Assembly (NCBI GenBank): GCA_016939335.1
Contig: JAFGHC010000027.1
Location: 1-60,666 of the forward strand
DNA: 60,666 nt
DNA from: Candidatus Saganbacteria bacterium
GTDB taxonomy: Bacteria > Margulisbacteria > WOR-1 > O2-12-FULL-45-9 > XYB2-FULL-48-7
Reading direction: 5' to 3'
Shown: positions 1,504-9,868 of the stretch, piece by piece
How positions within the stretch are numbered: the stretch's first letter is position 1
How the letters are laid out: each line of letters begins with the position of its first letter
The notes under the pieces: model-generated
Told to the model about the DNA's origin: nothing
What the model saw: only the letters and a program-made list of their open reading frames with translations
Databases searched by the model: none
Position numbers and translations under genes: made by a program

Positions 1504-2280
1504 CTACCTTAAAAAAACAAGCGTCCCCCACATTATCATCATCCCGAGAATTATGCCCAGAGAGACGAGATGCTCCTCTCCGTATTTATGGGCGGCGGGC
1601 AGGAGCTCATCAAAACTTATATAGATCATTATCCCGGCGACAAAAGCCAGCATGCCGTTAACCAACCCCGGCGTTAAAAATGGCCAGAGCAGCAGGGCGG
1701 CGGCAACCGCGCCGAGCGGCTCGGTAAGCCCGGAAGCGAATGAATACCAGAAAGCTTTCTTTCTGCTGTTGGTAGCGCAATAGACCGGCAGGGAGACCGA
1801 GATCCCTTCCGGTATATTATGGATGGCGATGGCCGCCGCCAGAATAACGCCGACCCCGATGGAATGAACGGTGCCGACGAACACCGTGACCCCTTCGGCC
1901 ACATTATGGATAGCGATCCCGATCGCCGTCAGCATTCCGGTCCTGGCCAGTTGTTCGGCTTTGCGATCGTTTTTATCGACGGGGAGGCATTCCGCTATAT
2001 ACTCGTGGGGGATCACTACGTCAATCAGAAAAACCAGCAGGATGCCCGCAAGGAATATTATATTGGCCCAGATAAAACCGATCTGGCCGATCGACCGGCC
2101 GAGCAACTCGACAAAGGAGATATAGATCATTACTCCGGCGGAGAGCCCCATACCAAGCGCTAACGTTTTATTGTCATTCTTTTTAATGAGCAGCGACAGC
2201 AGTGCGCCGATGGTGGTCGAGAATCCGGCTAATAATGACAGGCCTATCCCGATTAAAACAATCTCCTTAGGAATCCCCAT
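1504..2280 (-). CDS. zupT: ZIP-family zinc/divalent metal transporter ZupT
   Basis: GLSAGVMIYISF, AIAIHN.AEG / AIAIHNIPEG, GIMIYISFDELLP; start adjusted to MGIPKE. Confidence 0.9.
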   Translation of the reverse strand: MGIPKEIVLIGIGLSLLAGFSTTIGALLSLLIKKNDNKTLALGMGLSAGVMIYISFVELLGRSIGQIGFIWANIIFLAGILLVFLIDVVIPHEYIAECLPVDKNDRKAEQLARTGMLTAIGIAIHNVAEGVTVFVGTVHSIGVGVILAAAIAIHNIPEGISVSLPVYCATNSRKKAFWYSFASGLTEPLGAVAAALLLWPFLTPGLVNGMLAFVAGIMIYISFDELLPAAHKYGEEHLVSLGIILGMMIMWGTLVFLR

Positions 2281-2366
2281 ATTTTTATTATAGCACCCGA
2301 AGACGAACACCGCATGAATGGCGCCGGGTAAAACGGCTTTCGTGTGCTAAAATATTTATAACTTTT

Positions 2367-2413
2367 ATGTTATGTTTAGCCAGCGAAACTTCGTGCGCCC
2401 CACGAATACATCA
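2367..2413 (+). pseudogene. Remnant tsaD 5' end / attL-like site (copy 1)
   Basis: atgttatgtttagccagcgaaacttcgtgcg = MLCLASETSC, versus tsaD start VLVMAIETSC; followed by aatacatca. Confidence 0.65.
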
Positions 2414-2415
2414 CT

Positions 2416-3420
2416 ATGAGCGATAAAAGCCCGATCGCCAGGGTCGTCGCCCATTATCGGGACAGATACCGGGTCAGGAGCGGCCAGAACGAGTTCTGGG
2501 CCGAAGTGACCGGTAAAATGATGTTCACCGCGGCCGGGCCGGCCGATTACCCGCTCGTCGGCGATCTGGTAGAGATAACGGAACTGGAAAGCGATCATGC
2601 CATGATCAGACGGGTCGTGCCGAGAAAAACGCTCTTGCAGCGAAAAGCGTCCGGCAAAATCGCGGCTCAGCCGATCGCCGCCAACATCGATACCGCTTTT
2701 GTCGTTCAGGCGGCCGATCGCGATCATAATTTAAACCGCCTGGACCGTTATCTGGCGATCATCCGGGCCGGCAAGATCGAGCCGGTCATCGTCTTGAACA
2801 AGATCGACCTGGCAGCCGAGGGCCGGCTGGCCGGCATACTCGCGCAGATCGCCGGGCGCCATCAAGATACCACCGTGATCGCCACCAGCGCCGCGGCCGG
2901 CGACGGCCTGAAAGAGTTGCGCGCAAGACTGGAGAGCGGGAAAGTCCACTGTTTTGTCGGTTCTTCCGGCGCGGGCAAATCGTCAATTATCAACAAATTG
3001 CTGGGCAAGGAACTGCTGAAAACAAAAGAGATCAGCCTGTTCACCAAGAAAGGGAAACACACGACCACTCACCGCCAGCTGTTCATCCTCGATAGCGGCG
3101 CCCTGGTCATCGATAATCCGGGGATGAGGGAGATCGGGGTGGCGGACAGCGGCCCCGCCCTGGCCGGCGTTTTCGCTGAGATCGCGGACCTGGCCCGGGA
3201 TTGCCGGTACACCGATTGCGCTCACGATCACGAGCCGGGCTGCGCCATCCTGGCCGCGCTAAAGTCGGGCGCCATCGACCGCGATCAATACCTGAATTAC
3301 CTGAAACTGAAAAAGGAAGCCGATCATTACGCCCTGTCCAGCCTGGAGAAAAAGCAAAAAGACCGCGGCTTAAGCCGCCTGATCAAGAATTACTACAAAC
3401 AAACAAAGAGCGGGCGATAA
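2416..3420 (+). CDS. rsgA: Ribosome small subunit-dependent GTPase A
   Basis: OB-fold start, NKID, GSSGAGKS, GKHTTT, DNPG, C-terminal CRYTDCAH..EPGC zinc site. Confidence 0.95.
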   Translation: MSDKSPIARVVAHYRDRYRVRSGQNEFWAEVTGKMMFTAAGPADYPLVGDLVEITELESDHAMIRRVVPRKTLLQRKASGKIAAQPIAANIDTAFVVQAADRDHNLNRLDRYLAIIRAGKIEPVIVLNKIDLAAEGRLAGILAQIAGRHQDTTVIATSAAAGDGLKELRARLESGKVHCFVGSSGAGKSSIINKLLGKELLKTKEISLFTKKGKHTTTHRQLFILDSGALVIDNPGMREIGVADSGPALAGVFAEIADLARDCRYTDCAHDHEPGCAILAALKSGAIDRDQYLNYLKLKKEADHYALSSLEKKQKDRGLSRLIKNYYKQTKSGR

Positions 3421-3452
3421 TCGTTATCGCTGTGATAAAATGATGATCCAAC

Positions 3453-3500
3453 ATGCTTTGCTTAGCCATCGAAACTTCGTGCGTTCCCCAAACACATCAG
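3453..3500 (+). pseudogene. Remnant tsaD 5' end / attL-like site (copy 2), left border of island
   Basis: atgctttgcttagccatcgaaacttcgtgcg = MLCLAIETSC, then stops after 20 codons; ends in aacacatcag, the reverse complement of ctgatgtgtt at 8820-8829. Confidence 0.75.
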
Positions 3501-3579
3501 GGTAAATTTGGCTAAGGCGCTCAAGGCATCCCCCACCATACTACCTGAAAAAGCATTACGATCTAAATAATCCAATTCG

Positions 3580-4125
3580 CTATATTTTGGATAAACATTC
3601 GTCAAATTGTTCCGACAAAATAACCAAAGAATTATCTGGATGAAAAGTATTTTTCCCTACTCTTTTTAGGTAGCGGAGATACACGCGTTGGCGAAGAAAT
3701 GCGTCTAATAATGTCGCCGAGCGAGCAACAAGCACGCCTATTCTCCCAAGAGCAGAAGCATTTATTAAATCTCCAAGCAGATGTTTTCTACTCCCTGTAT
3801 CTTCAATCTCAATACAAAAAAGGCATCGCGCATTTTCATTAAAGTGCAGGATGCCATCAAACGAAACGCGTTCCTGAATATCACCGACAACATTTTTGTT
3901 ATGTTTATTAATCAAGCTTTCTACAAAACCACGCGTTTTCATGAGAGCTTGCGTGTATTCAGCCTCATATGTCCTTTGGATGGCAAAAGGCCCAACAGCC
4001 AAATCAACAACTGGGGAATATATTTGACGCCCCTCTCCCATAAATGGTCTCCACTGGACCTCCACTTCATTATAAAGCTTTTTCAATCTTTTTTTTGCTT
4101 TTTCCTGATATTCTCTCTCATTCAT
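3580..4125 (-). CDS. Putative PD-(D/E)xK-fold nuclease-like protein
   Basis: P.VDLAV ... CIEIEDTGSRKHLLGD.INAS.LGRIGVLV restriction-endonuclease-like spacing. Confidence 0.5.
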   Translation of the reverse strand: MNEREYQEKAKKRLKKLYNEVEVQWRPFMGEGRQIYSPVVDLAVGPFAIQRTYEAEYTQALMKTRGFVESLINKHNKNVVGDIQERVSFDGILHFNENARCLFCIEIEDTGSRKHLLGDLINASALGRIGVLVARSATLLDAFLRQRVYLRYLKRVGKNTFHPDNSLVILSEQFDECLSKI

Positions 4126-4144
4126 ATATTTCTAATCATCGCGG

Positions 4145-7100
4145 TCATCCTAGCTCAACTGTGGGGTATAATTCTTCTAACAAGCGCTGAATTTCTTTGC
4201 ATAGCCCTCTTTGCATTTCTGTTTTTGGGTTTATTGCCTTATAAGCTTTTACGAGCTCATTCATATAATAGCAATTCACTAAAATCCCTTTCTTTGTCGC
4301 GTCAGATATCATTTTAAGCAAAAAAGAAAATACTGACAAAAAATCATCGAGCGATTGCCCTAATATAATTTGGAAAACATCTTCCTCCGCCCCCCATAAT
4401 TGAGCATTTTGCTTATTTTTGATATGGGAATCGATCTCTATCTTAAATGCCTTCATAAACATATTCTTATATTTAGCATATTTACTTGGGCTTGCTATCT
4501 CAACTTCTATCACTCGATAAATATGCTCATACGCTTCTTTATCATATATATTCACCATGTGTTCAAAATATGGCTCTACCCTCAAAAAGTCATCTGTGGA
4601 TTTCTGTTGATCGTTTTGCGCAAGATTCCAGAATTCCCATGCTAATTGTCCTTTAAAAGGGCTTTCACTTGAGCATAATACCCTCAACTTATCTTTAAAG
4701 GGTTTAGAATTAAATTTTTGATCATCTTCTACAAATTCAGCATAATAGATAAAAAGGAATGCTGCCTTAGCCGCGCCCCTTCTCTCAAAAATAGATAGAA
4801 CTGCAGTCGCGTCATCAACACTCAAATCACGAATAAATGAGAACACATGAATTAGATATTCAATTAAATCGTAAGGCTTGGACAATTTCGCTTCGAATTG
4901 GTCATTTATTTGACGCAAAAGATTAAGCGCATAAAGCTTAATCTCATCCCCGAGGCCAGCCCTATACTCATTTAATTTGCCTCGCCTCCAATAATCAGAT
5001 AAATCAAGGAAAGGCACTAAAGCTTCTTTCCTTATGTATAGATCGGGCTCAGAATATTCTAACTTCTTTGCAAGAACGCCATCTAAGTCCATCAAGATTT
5101 TTATCTTTTCATAGGCATACGCCATCATACTAGGGTCATTCGTCAAAACAAAATACTTTAATAACCAAGCAACATGGGCTCTCACGCCGGAAATTGTGGG
5201 GATAGATTCACCGTTCTTAATTTTTATGTGCTGATTATATCTGTCCTGTTTGTCAGTATCCGGGTCGGGATCATCGATACATAAATCTACAATGTTTTTA
5301 CCCTCATTATAATACTTATTCTTAACCAGCTCTTCGCCCATTATTACTATATTCATTCGTATGTGCGTGCTATTTTTAAATTTACTCCAAAATACATCTT
5401 TATTCTTCAGATATGGCGAAATCATTGCATACGTCTTAACTGGATCAATCTTAGATAATTCCCTTATCGGTGCCGCTAAAAAATCCAAAACCTGCTCGCT
5501 TGGCGCCTCCTTACTTAGCAAGCAATGAACAATCTTCTCCCCACGCACAGCTCCTTCTGCCCAATCTTTTTCTATTAGCCCGGTGATAATCCCACTCTTA
5601 TCCCACACAATATCGCTATTAGATTCGTTTAAATATTTCGCAAAATCAATAGTATTGAATATATCCACTATAAAGCCGGGATCTGTTCCGGGGATTTGTT
5701 CTTTAATAAGCAATTCAAAAGAATCAAAATTATGATTATCATACCTAGCAAAATCTTTTCTTTTGATTAGAGACAAAAAGTATTCTTTTGCCGGCTCATA
5801 CCCTATTTTAATTAATTTAACCAGCACATGTATCGCAAAAAGACTCGTAGGATATCCAGGCTCATATTTACTAGCATCGAGCTTTATAAGCTCAATAATT
5901 CTATTTAATCCATATTGATTTAATTCGCCCTGGCTTAATAAATAAAATACCATCTCTGACGTCTGAGGAAGTCCTTTAATTATTTGCACAATATCTTTTA
6001 GGGCTAAAAAGGCATCCTCTCTTTTTGCGGCGCTAAGCGTATTGTCTGAGATTCTTTCCATCACGATTGGGATTAGCGCCCGATAAAGAAAAACGGGGTT
6101 ATTCCTACTTATACGTTTAAGCAAAATATTCCTTTTAAAGAAAAGCCATGAATTAGCTTTGTTCCCCTCATACATCTCCAAAAATAATGGTTTAAACAAC
6201 AACCTCACTACGCCCTTATCAGAAATTGAATAAGTATTTCCCACTTGCAACCTCCCACCACCAGCCCGCTCATACCCCTTAAATCCTCCGCCATATATGG
6301 CATTAAATTGAGCCGAGATTTTACCAACAACATATTTAAAATTTTTAAAATTTATTTTTAAATTAGAACAAATATAATTTCTAACGAACTTATAAATCAG
6401 AGGGGGAGTTTCAACAACGTTTTCAAAATCATCCGAAGTAAAATCATAGTATTTAAACAAAAAAGCAATAAATTCTCCCACATTTGATGCCCGGCCCAAC
6501 AATGCCTGCATAATTTGAGCAATATGCTCATCTTCCTGCCAATTTTTCTTTTGCCTAGCCCTGCTATTCCTATACTTCCAATCAAAAGGCCTTAGTATTT
6601 CTTTCTTTAAAAATCCTATAATCAATGAATCGTATTCGCCTTTAGCATCTTTACTAACCACTTCTTCTAACATGTCCATAGCGTCATCGTACTCGAATTC
6701 GGAAGAAAACCGCCTATAATTATTGATTAGAAATTTCATGACATAAGAGGGAGACGCCAACCCATTTTTCCATTTTTCCCTTATAATGCGTATTGCAAAA
6801 TGAATATAACATTCTTTAATTAACATCTTTTCCAAAAAGAAGCTCATTTCTTCAATAGTGAAATTAGAACTTTTTAGTTTATCGCTTAGATAAAAGATTA
6901 ATTGTGGCTTCGCACTCAATTGGCTCAAATAGACATGATTATCAAGTTCTCGAAAATTATTCGGGCAATCTAAATAGGACTTTAATGCTATAACCTCATT
7001 CCCCATCTTGATTTTCGGGTCAAATGGCGTTGGAATATTTGACAAATATTGCTCAAATTCCAATAGTTTCGATTTAAATTCGTTATTAGATATAGCGCCC

Positions 7101-7690
7101 CCCGATTTCCCTGTGTTCATTATTTCTTTAAAATATTGGGCGATAATATTATCTTTATCTTTGTCATCATAATAAAAATGATATTTAAAGGTAAAATGTT
7201 CACTTATTCGGGCATGAATCGCTTCTATATTGTTAAACTCAATGATTTCGGTTCTTAATAAAAATGAAATTTCCTGCGGAGTCCAATTCTGCTTAACTAG
7301 CGTTTTAATCCTAGGGTTCTGGCTAAGCAATCCTTCTTTAAACAAATAAGCATAATTTTTTAGATATAGATACACATTCCTTGCCCTCTCGCTCAGTCGC
7401 CTAACAACGATGAAAAACCTGTCCTCAACCCCATACTGCTTGCGCAATTTCTTCGCAATAATATTTTTGATATCACTCAGCCTTAATGGTTTTGCAAACG
7501 ATTTAATCTCATAATCCTCAACAATATCTTTGTATATCAATGTGAAATCACTTCGTCCTGCCGGCTCAATAACAATTTTCTCAAAATCAGATTTTTCGCT
7601 GGCCGCCAACAAATAAAGAAGCGCTATGTCTGCCTGGTCAGAAATCCCAGTAACTGTTGATTGCCCTTTATTTTTCATTTTGCTCGCCAT
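4145..7690 (-). CDS. Large protein: N-terminal Cap4/DUF4297-like endonuclease plus about 950 aa predicted helical region
   Basis: G..DQ..IALLYLL ... IVIE....DF ... YEIK N-terminal motif order; no canonical Walker A seen. Confidence 0.55.
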   Translation of the reverse strand: MASKMKNKGQSTVTGISDQADIALLYLLAASEKSDFEKIVIEPAGRSDFTLIYKDIVEDYEIKSFAKPLRLSDIKNIIAKKLRKQYGVEDRFFIVVRRLSERARNVYLYLKNYAYLFKEGLLSQNPRIKTLVKQNWTPQEISFLLRTEIIEFNNIEAIHARISEHFTFKYHFYYDDKDKDNIIAQYFKEIMNTGKSGGAISNNEFKSKLLEFEQYLSNIPTPFDPKIKMGNEVIALKSYLDCPNNFRELDNHVYLSQLSAKPQLIFYLSDKLKSSNFTIEEMSFFLEKMLIKECYIHFAIRIIREKWKNGLASPSYVMKFLINNYRRFSSEFEYDDAMDMLEEVVSKDAKGEYDSLIIGFLKKEILRPFDWKYRNSRARQKKNWQEDEHIAQIMQALLGRASNVGEFIAFLFKYYDFTSDDFENVVETPPLIYKFVRNYICSNLKINFKNFKYVVGKISAQFNAIYGGGFKGYERAGGGRLQVGNTYSISDKGVVRLLFKPLFLEMYEGNKANSWLFFKRNILLKRISRNNPVFLYRALIPIVMERISDNTLSAAKREDAFLALKDIVQIIKGLPQTSEMVFYLLSQGELNQYGLNRIIELIKLDASKYEPGYPTSLFAIHVLVKLIKIGYEPAKEYFLSLIKRKDFARYDNHNFDSFELLIKEQIPGTDPGFIVDIFNTIDFAKYLNESNSDIVWDKSGIITGLIEKDWAEGAVRGEKIVHCLLSKEAPSEQVLDFLAAPIRELSKIDPVKTYAMISPYLKNKDVFWSKFKNSTHIRMNIVIMGEELVKNKYYNEGKNIVDLCIDDPDPDTDKQDRYNQHIKIKNGESIPTISGVRAHVAWLLKYFVLTNDPSMMAYAYEKIKILMDLDGVLAKKLEYSEPDLYIRKEALVPFLDLSDYWRRGKLNEYRAGLGDEIKLYALNLLRQINDQFEAKLSKPYDLIEYLIHVFSFIRDLSVDDATAVLSIFERRGAAKAAFLFIYYAEFVEDDQKFNSKPFKDKLRVLCSSESPFKGQLAWEFWNLAQNDQQKSTDDFLRVEPYFEHMVNIYDKEAYEHIYRVIEVEIASPSKYAKYKNMFMKAFKIEIDSHIKNKQNAQLWGAEEDVFQIILGQSLDDFLSVFSFLLKMISDATKKGILVNCYYMNELVKAYKAINPKTEMQRGLCKEIQRLLEELYPTVELG

Positions 7691-8229
7691 TTGCGCATAA
7701 CATCCGAAGGCTCATATGTTCGGTTTGCATTTTTTATTGTTTCACGATTACTAATAATACCCATCAATTCCTCTGCATCAATTATTTTTATATAGCTAAA
7801 CTCTTTCTTATTGCTATAAATATATTCGGCGGCACTTTTATTCACTTTTCCTGAAGTAACTATATAAAAACCGTCGAGGTGCACTCCCTCGCTACCCTTA
7901 CTTGATGTTCCAAAATTAAAGCTATGAGAAAATGCCATTTTAATTTGATTTTGAATCGTTATAATGTTGCTGTTTTTATCTGGCTTTCCCTTGCAAACAA
8001 GATCGACACATTTTACTTGCACTCCAAATCTTTTTCGATGACGAAATATATCGGGATTTTCAAACCACACATCTATCCCCATCTCGGCGCTTCCGTGCAT
8101 ATCCTTAACATCTTCTGCAAAAATATAATTTAGAAGTGGAATTATAATCTTCTGACGCAATAAGTCCTCATTTTTGATGGACTTCAATATATCTATATTA
8201 ATAGTATCTAGATTAATGTTTTTCTTCAT
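7675..8229 (-). CDS. Mrr-like restriction endonuclease domain protein
   Basis: E..L...II.PLL, HG.AEMGIDV, GVQVK, YIVTSG, IIDAEEL. Confidence 0.7.
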   Translation of the reverse strand: MKKNINLDTINIDILKSIKNEDLLRQKIIIPLLNYIFAEDVKDMHGSAEMGIDVWFENPDIFRHRKRFGVQVKCVDLVCKGKPDKNSNIITIQNQIKMAFSHSFNFGTSSKGSEGVHLDGFYIVTSGKVNKSAAEYIYSNKKEFSYIKIIDAEELMGIISNRETIKNANRTYEPSDVMRKWRAK

Positions 8230-8560
8230 GCATAAATGCCTTGATTTTCTGCTTCTTTATTTACTTATTCAATCTGCATGATGAATTATTATACCTCTTT
8301 TGCCTGTTTTAATCGCGAATACTTAGATAATATGGCATTCTTGCTATGCTGGTCGTCAGTTTTTCCCTCTTCAGCAGTATTGTTAATAATCGACAAAGCT
8401 ATTTGTATCCCGCCCGTCCTTAAGAGAAGGCAACATTTCTTTTTTAATCTTTCGTTCTTTCGTTAATTTCGCTCCCTAAAGAACAACATCAAGGTTTTTA
8501 TTCAAACCTCTTTATGTTAAAATCACATTCAGTTAACGAATTAAAGGAGGGGGTGTTTCC

Positions 8561-8770
8561 ATGAAAGAATTTGTGGCAATTGAAGATTTAAACGAAGTGT
8601 TTGCTGATTTTAAGAGAAAATTAAATGGATATGTTTTAAGGCGTGCTAAAGAAGAAACTTTAAGGCTATCACCCAATAAAGCCAAGAGAATCATGGCTAA
8701 AGTATTAGATATTTATAAACAAAGAAAGCTAACAAATAAAATTCTTGATGACATCTTAAAATCCTCATAA
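8561..8770 (+). CDS. Small basic hypothetical protein at the island's right end
   Basis: Strong AAGGAGG RBS, 69 aa ORF. Confidence 0.55.
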   Translation: MKEFVAIEDLNEVFADFKRKLNGYVLRRAKEETLRLSPNKAKRIMAKVLDIYKQRKLTNKILDDILKSS

Positions 8771-8824
8771 GAAATTATATTTTGTTCTTTATGTTTTCCG
8801 TAAATATCAAGGAGAACTACTGAT

Positions 8825-9868
8825 GTGTTAGTGATGGCCATCGAAACCTCCTGCGACGAGACCGCCGCCGCCGTCGTGCGCGACGGGCGGGAAGTTCTGT
8901 CCAGCGTCATCTCTTCGCAGACCGAGTTCCACAAAAAGTACGGCGGGATCGTGCCGGAGGTGGCCGCCCGCAAGCATATCGAGGTCATCTCGCCGGTCAT
9001 CAAGGAAGCGATGGAGACGGCAAAAGCCGGCTTCCGCGAACTTGACGCGGTCGCCGTCACCTGCGGCCCCGGGCTGGTCGGCTCGCTCATCGTCGGGCTC
9101 TCCGCCGCCAAAGCGATCGCCTGGTCGATCAACAAGCCCCTCATCGGCGTCAACCATCTTGAGGGACATATCTATGCGAACTTTTTAAATCCCAACCTCA
9201 AACTTCAAACATCCAAACAAAAGGCAAAGGACAATCATCAAAAACCAAATTTCCCTTTTGTTTGCTTGCTGGTTTCCGGCGGTCACACAATGATTATCAA
9301 AGTTAACGGGCACGGAGTCTACCAGACCCTCGGCCGCACGCGCGACGACGCAGCGGGGGAAGCGTTCGACAAAGTGGCGCGGTTCCTCGGTCTCGGCTAC
9401 CCGGGCGGGCCGGTCATCGACCGGCTGGCCAAAGAAGGCAACCCAAAGGCCGTGAAGTTCACCCGCCCCCTCCCCGACGGCTACGACTTCAGCTTCAGCG
9501 GGATCAAGACGGGTGTTGTCAACGTCAAGAGCCGTGACCCGGGACTCACGACCCGGGACATTGTTGCTTCCTTCCAGCAAGCCGTCGTCGATGTCCTGGT
9601 CGATAAAGCTGTCCGCGCCGCGCTGGACCACGGCTGTCAAACAATGACGCTCGCCGGCGGCGTTTCGGCAAATTCATTATTGAGAAGCCAGCTTGAAGCG
9701 CGCGGAGAAGACGCAGGCTTAAAGGTTGTCATCCCGCCCTTCGAATACTGCACCGACAACGCCGCCATGATCGCCAGCGCCGGATTTTATAAATACATCA
9801 ATTCGTCATTCGTCATTCGTCATTCGTCATTATCCCTTGAAGCCGTTGCCAGTTTGCGCCTGGAGTAA
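8825..9868 (+). CDS. tsaD: tRNA N6-adenosine threonylcarbamoyltransferase TsaD
   Basis: AIETSCDET, VPEVAARKH, GPGL.GSL, VNHLEGH, LVSGGHT, DDAAGEAFDK, CTDNAAMI. Confidence 0.97.
   Translation: MLVMAIETSCDETAAAVVRDGREVLSSVISSQTEFHKKYGGIVPEVAARKHIEVISPVIKEAMETAKAGFRELDAVAVTCGPGLVGSLIVGLSAAKAIAWSINKPLIGVNHLEGHIYANFLNPNLKLQTSKQKAKDNHQKPNFPFVCLLVSGGHTMIIKVNGHGVYQTLGRTRDDAAGEAFDKVARFLGLGYPGGPVIDRLAKEGNPKAVKFTRPLPDGYDFSFSGIKTGVVNVKSRDPGLTTRDIVASFQQAVVDVLVDKAVRAALDHGCQTMTLAGGVSANSLLRSQLEARGEDAGLKVVIPPFEYCTDNAAMIASAGFYKYINSSFVIRHSSLSLEAVASLRLE

Follow-up and report, generated by a model that had tools for sequence, protein, structure and literature searches.

A probable decayed integrative island at the 5' end of tsaD in a Candidatus Saganbacteria genome and its recombinase-bearing relatives

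The window, i.e., the whole stretch of 60,666 nucleotides that was analysed (contig JAFGHC010000027.1 of a Candidatus Saganbacteria genome), contains the start of tsaD three times, at 2367, 3453 and 8825, with no further copy elsewhere in the genome. The last of these (F) opens the working gene, and the first two (R1 and R2) are remnants. The features of the region are the following, with positions counted along the window:

2345..2414, + strand: R1, the outermost junction (sequence, repeat search, junction alignment), with its ATG at 2367 and GAAAC at 2385-2389
2416..3420, + strand: rsgA, RsgA GTPase, 334 aa (Pfam RsgA_GTPase, E 4e-50)
3433..3516, + strand: R2, attL-type junction of the AT-rich island (sequence, repeat search, arm shared with other genomes), with its ATG at 3453 and GAAAC at 3471-3475
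3476..8842, no strand: AT-rich, probably inserted island, with no recombinase gene (GC, repeat spacing, Pfam)
3580..4125, - strand: cargo ORF, 181 aa, no family match
4145..7690, - strand: cargo ORF, 1181 aa, rare conserved family, predicted model
7675..8229, - strand: cargo ORF, 184 aa, weak Mrr_cat match
8515..8770, + strand: TGTTAAAAT at 8515-8523 and a 69-aa ORF at 8561-8770 (sequence, ORF list)
8809..8847, + strand: attR-type junction (sequence, inverted-repeat test, likeness to a relative by eye), with F starting at GTG 8825 and GAAAC at 8843-8847
8825..9868, + strand: working tsaD, 347 aa (Pfam TsaD, E 7e-97), the sole full tsaD in the genome

A repeat search recovered R1 and R2 as a 47-nt direct repeat of 81% identity at a spacing of 1086 nt, and a 19-nt core in all three copies, at spacings of 1086 and 5372 nt. 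The degenerate core GCCAKCGAAACYTCSTGCG occurs three times in the 1.53-Mb genome, always at the tsaD locus, and its reversed control does not occur at all. By inspection, an extended -10-like motif lies upstream of each remnant (TGCTAAAAT at 2345-2353 in R1, TGATAAAAT at 3433-3441 in R2), followed by an ATG with five tsaD-start codons (2367-2384 in R1; MLCLAI, 3453-3470, in R2) and then by the GAAAC core, which belongs to the IETSC-coding stretch, presumably the ASKHA phosphate-1 motif. After cgaaacttcgtgcg, both remnants continue with 7 nt and then aatacatca or aacacatca, so that the sequence agrees with an earlier note that had described the three copies, the extended -10 motifs and this identically spaced motif.

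Beyond the core, R2 carries an element arm, TTCGTGCG-N6-AAACACATCAG (3476-3500), with a conserved tail to ggcTAA that ends at 3516, and arms of this type recur in the genomes G006 and G030 and in metagenome junctions. The corresponding arm of R1 is decayed, with GAATACATCAC at +15..+25 (2404-2414) retaining 8/11 matches to the consensus. At the other end of the AT-rich block, the tsaD-side arm of the element consists of the RBS AAGGAGA (8809-8815) and CTGATGTGTT (8820-8829), followed by the GTG start with five replacement codons (VLVMAI) and the core. R2 and F have GCCATCGAAAC in common, with host-type sequence on the outer sides (left of R2, right of F) and element-type sequence on the inner sides.

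CTGATGTGTT is the exact reverse complement of 3491-3500, as had been noted of ctgatgtgtt, although it overlaps the GTG start and does not merely lie upstream of it. The two segments form a 10-nt perfect inverted repeat, centred on GAAAC and spanning 53 nt, and inverted runs of at least 10 nt at offsets of +/-2 around the core were found in ~0.02% of 20,000 random 32-nt pairs drawn from the window (p ~2e-4). The att sites of large serine recombinases (LSRs) are about 50 bp long and have imperfect dyad symmetry around a central crossover dinucleotide. The proposed att site of ~53 bp with 10-bp inverted repeats stands in the window, but the perfect repeat is peculiar to this copy; in G006 the dyad symmetry is weak (14/31 positions, p ~0.09), so that this feature is only partly conserved.

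The island measures 5,372 bp (5.37 kb) from core to core, between the second tsaD-start copy and the working gene, and its GC content of 31-41% over about 3500-8800, against 55-68% on both flanks, changes at edges that coincide exactly with the tsaD-start copies. The 181-, 1181- and 184-aa proteins of the cargo gave no match at thresholds in Pfam, PADLOC and NCBIfam, except for a weak similarity of the 184-aa ORF, which overlaps the start of the 1181-aa ORF by 16 nt, to the restriction-endonuclease-like Mrr_cat (E 0.008, 16.7 bits, below the cut-off of 21). The 1181-aa protein belongs to a family with 19 homologues and is predicted (AlphaFold, pLDDT 86.2) to have an N-terminal alpha/beta domain followed by a long alpha-solenoid; structure comparison of this model returned generic HEAT/ARM solenoids only, at TM 0.3 or less. 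Its Atlas clusters are all 'hypothetical', apart from a 0.81 lead to a Cap4 nuclease, which was not relied on.

The 69-aa ORF is co-directional with tsaD and had no family in Pfam, PADLOC or NCBIfam, with a PADLOC ZorD match (E 0.008) at chance level; no similarity was found to the 134-aa ORF at the same end in G006. The TGTTAAAAT region is likely an element-borne promoter that now feeds tsaD. The extended -10 motif TGnTAnAAT was found at 10/25 junctions and 8/21 working starts, against a background of 1%, and a generic sigma-70 and terminator scan of 2200-9000 (16 sites vs 18.4 in shuffles) is uninformative on such motifs, because extended -10 promoters are outside its model.

The arrangement is not confined to the window. 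In a survey of 146 representative genomes of the phylum, the junction pattern was found in 9 of the 31 genomes of the order, as opposed to 0 of the 115 others, with no control matches, and extra tsaD-start copies were present in 7/20 relatives with upstream DNA examined. Among 34 metagenome contigs that matched the pattern, 12 had a tsaD-start context (the other 22 being chance matches), and no match was obtained on viral contigs. The cargo at the tsaD locus of the order includes toxin-antitoxin pairs, a restriction-modification system, a reverse transcriptase with Avd and the 1181-aa protein. A complete genome of the same family but another lineage (G004) has a tsaD start and no junction anywhere, and is thus a candidate for the unoccupied site.

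The window itself holds two tandem units which share att repeats. The outer one consists of rsgA, of housekeeping type and not remarked on in the earlier note, which has host-like GC and fills the entire 1086-bp R1-R2 unit, and therefore occupies a cassette position; its architecture is that of the AT-rich island, with a more decayed arm. The gene is present in 16/31 genomes of the order, and a tsaD-like core was found beside it only in G000, G006 and G012 among the relatives checked. A simple inversion as the source of its orientation was rejected, given that R1 and R2 are direct and not inverted repeats, and the unit may have been stacked there at an earlier time, or it may be a neighbouring gene that was captured. 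It could also be argued that the tsaD promoter and leader were duplicated locally, with no integration involved, and that the copies R1 and R2 were recruited to drive rsgA and its neighbours, considering the extended -10-like motif directly upstream of both copies, the end of R1 only 1 nt before the rsgA start, where it could serve as promoter or leader, and the host GC of the gene. Both copies, however, run into non-tsaD sequence that matches the recombinase-adjacent arm of other genomes, and the arrangement recurs with unrelated cargo in at least 9 genomes and 12 metagenome contigs, which makes this explanation highly improbable, and it is already contradicted for R2.

Across genomes and metagenomes, 25 distinct junctions share the consensus ATG..GCcaTc/GAAAC/aTCGTGCGa.CcacAAACACATCAG, and some contigs carry arrays of up to four small recombinase-less cassettes, with identical cassettes in differing orders between contigs. 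For example, L089 contains 4 junctions within 6 kb; in L075 and L092 there are 2 arm-bearing junctions each plus a further tsaD-start core without the arm, and in G030 at least 4 junctions. L075 and L089 share one cassette at 99.9% identity over 1402 nt and a second at 98.8% over 1028 nt, with different order and neighbours, and the homology stops at the core; families f1 and f2, whose tsaD bodies are ~72% identical, have an MNT/HEPN cassette in common at 91% identity. Copies of one cassette have left neighbours that differ up to the base before GAAAC, and after it the working genes keep host-type codons where the junctions carry (A/T)TCGTGCG. These comparisons bracket the crossover to GAAAC.

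A recombinase is tied to the same site in relatives of the window. In G006, a 510-aa protein with Resolvase, Recombinase and Zn_ribbon_recom domains adjoins a junction whose right-hand arm has AAACACATCAG at 15-25 nt after GAAAC, i.e., with the 14-nt spacing of R2, and whose tsaD-side arm (RBS, 9 nt, GTG) resembles that of the window in layout and sequence, by eye. The metagenome contigs L085 and L096 have homologues in the same placement, 71-72% identical to this LSR. For all three recombinases found, the junction bears the same AAACACATCAG arm as R2, with the stop codon at exactly 42 nt past the G of the core. The closest solved structure is that of SPbeta SprA/YokA (9dxh, E 4e-20), and the NCBIfam scores of the G006 protein for CcrB (126 bits) and CcrC (96 bits) are so far below the cut-offs of 900 that it is not a Ccr orthologue. 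Its close homologues are limited to G006 itself among the 146 representative genomes; the other LSRs in the order are ~30% identical and do not lie at tsaD.

On the other hand, no serine-recombinase domain was found by Pfam in the window island, nor in its 94.9%-complete genome, and the island is therefore either immobile or dependent on help in trans. Given that relatives possess a recombinase, the window copy is a derivative and not an autonomous member. The earlier note had proposed repeated site-specific integration at the tsaD start, with the recombinase lost or acting in trans, and had suggested looking for recombinases beside tsaD and for variable cargo upstream of it in related genomes, as points on which the idea could fail; both searches succeeded, and the missing recombinase fits the second part of the proposal.

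Homologous recombination of the RecA type, or else illegitimate recombination (e.g., after natural transformation), might also insert and shuffle cargo through the conserved 45-60-bp tsaD-start repeats, with the recombinase as a mere passenger. Most arrays are indeed without a recombinase, and G002 and G005 have longer remnants (45 and 17 codons) that lack the element arm, so that a second process also duplicates the tsaD start. The 6-nt spacer (+9..+14) and the core-adjacent codons at -15..-4 differ in patches between near-identical copies of one cassette, which resembles gene conversion and is not predicted by a single fixed crossover. Nevertheless, one fixed architecture with one GAAAC breakpoint holds across the 25 junctions, the AAACACATCAG arm is conserved across two families despite being non-tsaD sequence, the recombinase genes keep their fixed distance from the core in 3/3 cases, and the core of the window is surrounded by the 10-nt inverted repeat, all of which leaves this process an unlikely source of the arrays.

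Small, promoter-bearing, recombinase-less cassettes in permuted order could also have been assembled in trans, by a tyrosine recombinase or some integron-like system that uses the repeats as attC-like sites, and the genome of the window has 4 Phage_integrase matches, on other contigs. Yet a Pfam scan of 69 ORFs around the junctions found no tyrosine recombinase beside any of those examined, the LSR is the only recombinase positioned at junctions, and a junction consists of a coding core and one conserved arm, with no attC-like imperfect hairpin, so that we give this origin hardly any credence.

The block 3476-8842 is thus best read as a decayed integrative island of an LSR element family that targets tsaD codons 6-10 (IETSC), a reading which we hold to be probable. 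The att site of the element would recombine with the tsaD start inside the 5-nt core, leaving behind the host promoter, six codons and the GA of the seventh, fused to the recombinase-side arm as R2, while the other arm would contribute five new codons behind an RBS and a GTG start (VLVMAIE/TSCDET...), by which TsaD stays whole. The recombinase gene, which normally runs on the reverse strand and stops 42 nt from the core, would later have been deleted, leaving the three-gene cargo operon and the small ORF. The anatomy of the junctions, their recurrence, their link to an LSR in relatives and the permutation of cassettes between contigs are observations; we infer the exact dinucleotide of the crossover, catalysis by a G006-type LSR, the order of these events and mobilisation in trans. 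The evidence supports the first codons of tsaD as a docking site for successive serine-recombinase elements, each of which brings a new gene start, and the window copy as a fossil, with its recombinase lost, of a recurring and apparently undescribed island variant.

Canonical LSRs recombine attP with attB only, which does not account for stacking at a site that an earlier element has already rebuilt. One doubtful but possible solution is that a serine recombinase uses the tsaD start of this order as a genuine platform for cassettes, in the manner of an integron. A rare helper element that bears the LSR may then excise small recombinase-less units and re-insert them in trans, and the mobile units could include host-type genes such as rsgA. 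As every unit provides tsaD with a start codon and with a promoter or RBS, its retention would be tied to tsaD expression, and as the supplied codons must encode the TsaD N-terminus, each insertion would rebuild a usable target, which would explain serial stacking at the gene-proximal end.

If the island does belong to an LSR element family, the IETSC-coding DNA at the very start of an essential gene represents a new natural serine integrase target, with a defined core, an element arm and a candidate enzyme, the G006 LSR. It also exposes a design constraint, given that an element which enters a gene at its 5' end has to bring expression signals as well as a start codon and N-terminal codons, under which tiny recombinase-less cassettes still stack. 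In this order, the tsaD locus marks the accumulation of accessory and defence-like genes, and the core plus AAACACATCAG provides a simple sequence handle for locating such genes in metagenomes.

Our literature searches on tsaD attB, on the old enzyme name with integration and on Saganbacteria recombinases returned nothing relevant among the papers listed, and no report was found that links tsaD, a serine recombinase and integration. As regards the LSR elements in general, the dyad att site and the short core shared by attL and attR are both present, and an own recombinase is absent from the window and present in G006, L085 and L096. Integron arrays likewise consist of ordered, small, mostly single-gene, recombinase-less cassettes at one platform, permuted between genomes, but here neither an IntI tyrosine recombinase nor attC hairpins define the system, the associated recombinase is an LSR, and the promoter-like motif and start codon that every cassette has of its own serve the downstream essential gene and not the cassette gene.

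Other elements integrate at the 5' ends of genes, and with its insertion SXT gives prfC a new promoter and 5' end. The SXT/R391 and dusA systems differ from the present one in their tyrosine recombinases and in being large self-transmissible elements or prophages, and to our knowledge they do not form stacks of small recombinase-less cassettes. PMC2791158 describes SXT/R391 integrative conjugative elements, which enter prfC at its 5' end, and dusA-specific integrases (PMC4482086) are a further system for comparison.

SCC elements at rlmH (orfX), with CcrAB/CcrC, likewise involve insertion by an LSR into one end of a conserved housekeeping gene and tandem stacks bounded by repeated att sites, with some units devoid of a recombinase; passages of PMC11470126 describe recombinase-less SCC/SCCmec units with defence and accessory genes, mobilisable in trans by Ccr. 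The tandem units are shared with the tsaD islands, but the rlmH target and a Ccr-type recombinase are not, the G006 protein matching the CcrB/CcrC models of NCBIfam far below their cut-offs. SCC targets the 3' end of rlmH, whereas here it is the 5' end of tsaD, codons 6-10, and each unit must therefore bring a start codon and N-terminal codons, along with an RBS or promoter. In the tsaD arrays, cassettes are also much smaller (0.7-1.4 kb vs 24-68 kb), and the host is an uncultured Saganbacteria-like order, unlike the staphylococcal hosts of SCC.

Finally, the ssrA-GIs of Dehalococcoides, with the serine recombinase DsiB, form tandem islands that have direct repeats of a gene end as their boundaries, and McMurdie et al. 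2011 (PMC3146451) report an integration module on the reverse strand directly beside attL, with an LSR of ~540 aa, a small PinR-like serine recombinase and a large primase-like protein, which many of the islands lack. Its counterpart in G006 comprises the 510-aa LSR beside attL, an 826-aa Toprim protein and a 179-aa resolvase, and is absent from the window island; the likeness to DsiB is one of module layout by description. The ssrA-GIs target the 3' end of the tmRNA gene and not a 5' coding sequence such as that of tsaD, so that, unlike the tsaD islands, they need no replacement of a promoter or N-terminus. SCC at rlmH and the Dehalococcoides ssrA islands are, in sum, the closest known systems, and the difference lies in the target, in the present case an essential protein gene entered at its 5' end.

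Three copies of the start of tsaD lie in the window, together with the genes that separate them:

Features around the tsaD-start copies of the window
1504-2310, minus strand: ZIP-family transporter gene
2367 (ATG), plus strand: R1, the first tsaD-start copy
2416-3420, between R1 and R2: rsgA
3453 (ATG), plus strand: R2, the second tsaD-start copy
3476-8842, from the R2 core to the working tsaD core: AT-rich block (the island) with four ORFs, three on the minus strand (181, 1181 and 184 aa) and one on the plus strand (69 aa)
8825 (GTG): working tsaD, 347 aa, Pfam TsaD E 7e-97

A repeat search of the window paired R1 with R2 (direct repeat of 47 nt, 81% identity) and recovered three copies of a 19-nt core, the degenerate form of which has three matches in the 1.53-Mb assembly, all of them at this locus (reversed control, 0). 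The GC content drops from 55-68% to 31-41% across approximately 3500-8800, and 3491-3500 matches, base for base, the reverse complement of CTGATGTGTT (8820-8829), an inverted run of a length that about 0.02% of randomly drawn segment pairs reached. Every detail of the three starts and the inverted repeat described in the earlier note stood up to these checks, with the one refinement that the left inverted repeat does not simply precede the GTG start, but overlaps it. Near its 3' end (9802-9829, plus strand), tsaD also contains a 7-nt unit, ttcgtca, four times in tandem, which encodes SSFVIRHSS.

All 31 genomes of the order to which the window belongs have tsaD, and the comparison of the upstream DNA in 20 of these revealed additional tsaD-start copies in seven (G002, G003, G005, G006, G015, G020, and G030), i.e., the relatives do have variable cargo ahead of tsaD, while no extra start was found with the patterns used in the other 13, several of whose contigs end near the gene. 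G004 offers a candidate unoccupied tsaD start. In G006, a minus-strand rsgA is followed, after 37 nt, by a tsaD-start copy in which GAAAC (the core) precedes 14 nt and then AAACACATCAG, a motif of the conserved non-tsaD arm of the element, with both motif and spacing identical to those of R2. Directly past AAACACATCAG lies the stop codon of a 510-aa reverse-strand ORF with Resolvase, Recombinase, and Zn_ribbon_recom domains, a large serine recombinase (LSR) for which the SPbeta serine integrase SprA/YokA is the closest relative of solved structure. Beyond this gene, a 14-kb low-GC element, carrying a primase-like Toprim protein and a small resolvase as well as a restriction-modification set (NgoFVII-type nuclease, C5 methylase, and Vsr), leads to the working tsaD, where the arm on the tsaD side (AAGGAGAA, 9 nt, GTG) appears, by eye, similar to that of the window in both layout and sequence.

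The exact core and arm pattern was found in three genome contigs (one being G016:C58) and 34 metagenome contigs, in 12 of which a tsaD start lies on the left side of the match; viral contigs gave no match. The other 22 metagenome matches lie in unrelated contexts, and were discarded as chance hits, the pattern being one of 18 bases in this collection. Two of the 12 contigs (L085 and L096) encode recombinases 71-72% identical to that of G006 (tblastn), and in all three elements the distance from the G of GAAAC to the recombinase stop that follows is exactly 42 nt. A recombinase adjoining duplicated tsaD-start DNA was thus encountered when searched for, and the LSR at 42 nt from the core, together with the junctions in the relatives, supports the proposal that integration at the tsaD start occurs by site-specific recombination.

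When up to two mismatches are allowed, the pattern is found in nine of the 146 genomes of the phylum, all within the window's order (9/31 vs 0/115 outside; control, 0), and the G006-type recombinase in only one of the 146. The window's genome (94.9% complete) has neither this recombinase nor any Resolvase or Recombinase domain whatsoever, which fits the suggestion of the earlier note that the recombinase has been lost or acts in trans; the window's copy is a recombinase-less fossil of the tsaD-start element family.

Where copies of one cassette (the DNA between successive tsaD-start junctions) have differing left neighbours, the sequences differ up to the base preceding GAAAC, and from the base following it the working genes retain host-type codons (CTCCTGCGAC...), where the junctions instead have (A/T)TCGTGCG. 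In the window, the third A of GAAAC marks the centre of the inverted repeat, and the dyad symmetry around the core is weak in G006. As far as its sequence indicates, the site fits a serine-integrase attachment site with its central dinucleotide somewhere in GAAAC. In the window, the element would have integrated at the tsaD start, leaving the codons MLCLAI(E) behind as R2 along with the host promoter, and bringing an RBS and GTG-VLVMAI(E) for tsaD, probably together with a promoter, for which TGTTAAAAT (8515-8523), ahead of the 69-aa ORF, is the candidate, with the recombinase gene presumably being lost later.

Canonical serine integrases are not known to act on a rebuilt site, which leaves the stacking of junctions in need of an explanation; it is possible that the site remains target-like given that its first seven codons must still encode the TsaD N-terminus. 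The 6-nt spacer (+9 to +14) and the codons at -15 to -4 from the core differ sharply among cassette copies which are otherwise 97-99% identical (L069, L075, and L089), and one spacer is common to three of the four junctions of L089, which hints at either local homogenisation or a second exchange point. The tsaD remnants of G002 and G005 are longer and have no arm, and another process therefore also acts at the tsaD start. The G005 island (L027) spans about 7.8 kb between two such remnants, of 17 codons and without the recombinase arm, and contains an ISL3 transposase, two phosphatidylserine-decarboxylase-like genes, a pyruvoyl arginine decarboxylase, and an asparaginase.

Arrays of junctions are found in L089 (four within 6 kb), in L075 and L092 (two arm-bearing junctions each, plus one further tsaD-start core with no arm), and in G030, with at least four ahead of tsaD. 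Each unit opens with the conserved arm, and ends with an ATG, GTG, or TTG 18 nt before GAAAC at 19 of the 25 distinct junctions. Ten of these 25, and 8 of the 21 starts of working tsaD genes, also have an extended -10-like TGnTAnAAT, which 1% of random windows contain. The units behave as independent modules: a unit with a 375-aa ORF (99.9% identity) and a zeta-toxin unit (98.8%) are shared by L075 and L089 in a different order and with different neighbours, the homology stopping at the core, and G005 (family f1) and G020 (family f2), with tsaD bodies approximately 72% identical, share an MNT/HEPN unit at 91% identity.

The cargo, based on the ORFs around the junctions, consists mostly of toxin-antitoxin pairs, Fic, reverse transcriptase with bAvd, decarboxylases, and transporters. 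Given that the homology of the arm extends some 70 nt beyond the core, i.e., approximately nine codons into the 3' end of the recombinase, the recombinase-less units may derive from recombinase-bearing ones through internal deletion. To the right of the L068 (G026:C33) junction, an RVT_1 reverse transcriptase and a bAvd-like protein directly adjoin, which suggests that the cargo there includes a diversity-generating retroelement.

The 1181-aa cargo protein of the window (4145-7690, minus strand) has 19 homologues of about 1180 aa, with 25-50% identity, among 5.8 billion proteins, and is a member of a rare conserved family, with no match in Pfam, PADLOC, or NCBIfam. Its structure, predicted with confidence (pLDDT 86.2), begins with a small alpha/beta domain at the N-terminus and continues as a long alpha-solenoid; a structure search returned only generic HEAT/ARM proteins. 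The ORF is flanked by those of 184 aa (weak Mrr_cat) and 181 aa, and may encode a new defence-type protein.

The unit between R1 and R2 contains rsgA, and the R1 arm, which is decayed (8/11 in the motif), ends 1 nt ahead of the rsgA start. The window type of rsgA is present in 16 of the 31 order genomes (11 of the 16 high-quality ones) and missing from several relatives of high tsaD identity (G002, G005, and G011), an unusual distribution for a GTPase of ribosome assembly. Among the order genomes, rsgA is close to tsaD in G000, G006, and G012 alone, and the metagenome contig L082 is a further case: there, a 125-bp solo junction remnant (3470-3595), absent from the syntenic spot in G006, has an EamA-like gene on one side and the 3' end of a minus-strand rsgA on the other. 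In view of this remnant and of R1, rsgA fills the place of a cassette in two settings, with the opposite orientation in each, and the odds that the unit represents a captured gene or old stacking are about even.

Among the closest systems to the tsaD arrays are the SCC elements at rlmH, whose account in PMC11470126 includes tandem recombinase-less defence cassettes moved by CcrAB. The ssrA islands of Dehalococcoides (PMC3146451) are another of these systems, and the G006 element matches their module, in which the genes of an LSR, of a small serine recombinase, and of a primase-like protein lie on the reverse strand beside attL. Also close, through integration at the 5' end of a gene, is the case described for SXT at prfC (PMC2791158), which uses a tyrosine recombinase, whereas the tsaD-start elements are associated with an LSR, and for the dusA integrases (PMC4482086), which also differ in being tyrosine recombinases. 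No description of tsaD serving as an attachment site came up in the literature searches, and the tsaD-start family is a known kind of serine-recombinase island, in which the novelty is tsaD as the target.
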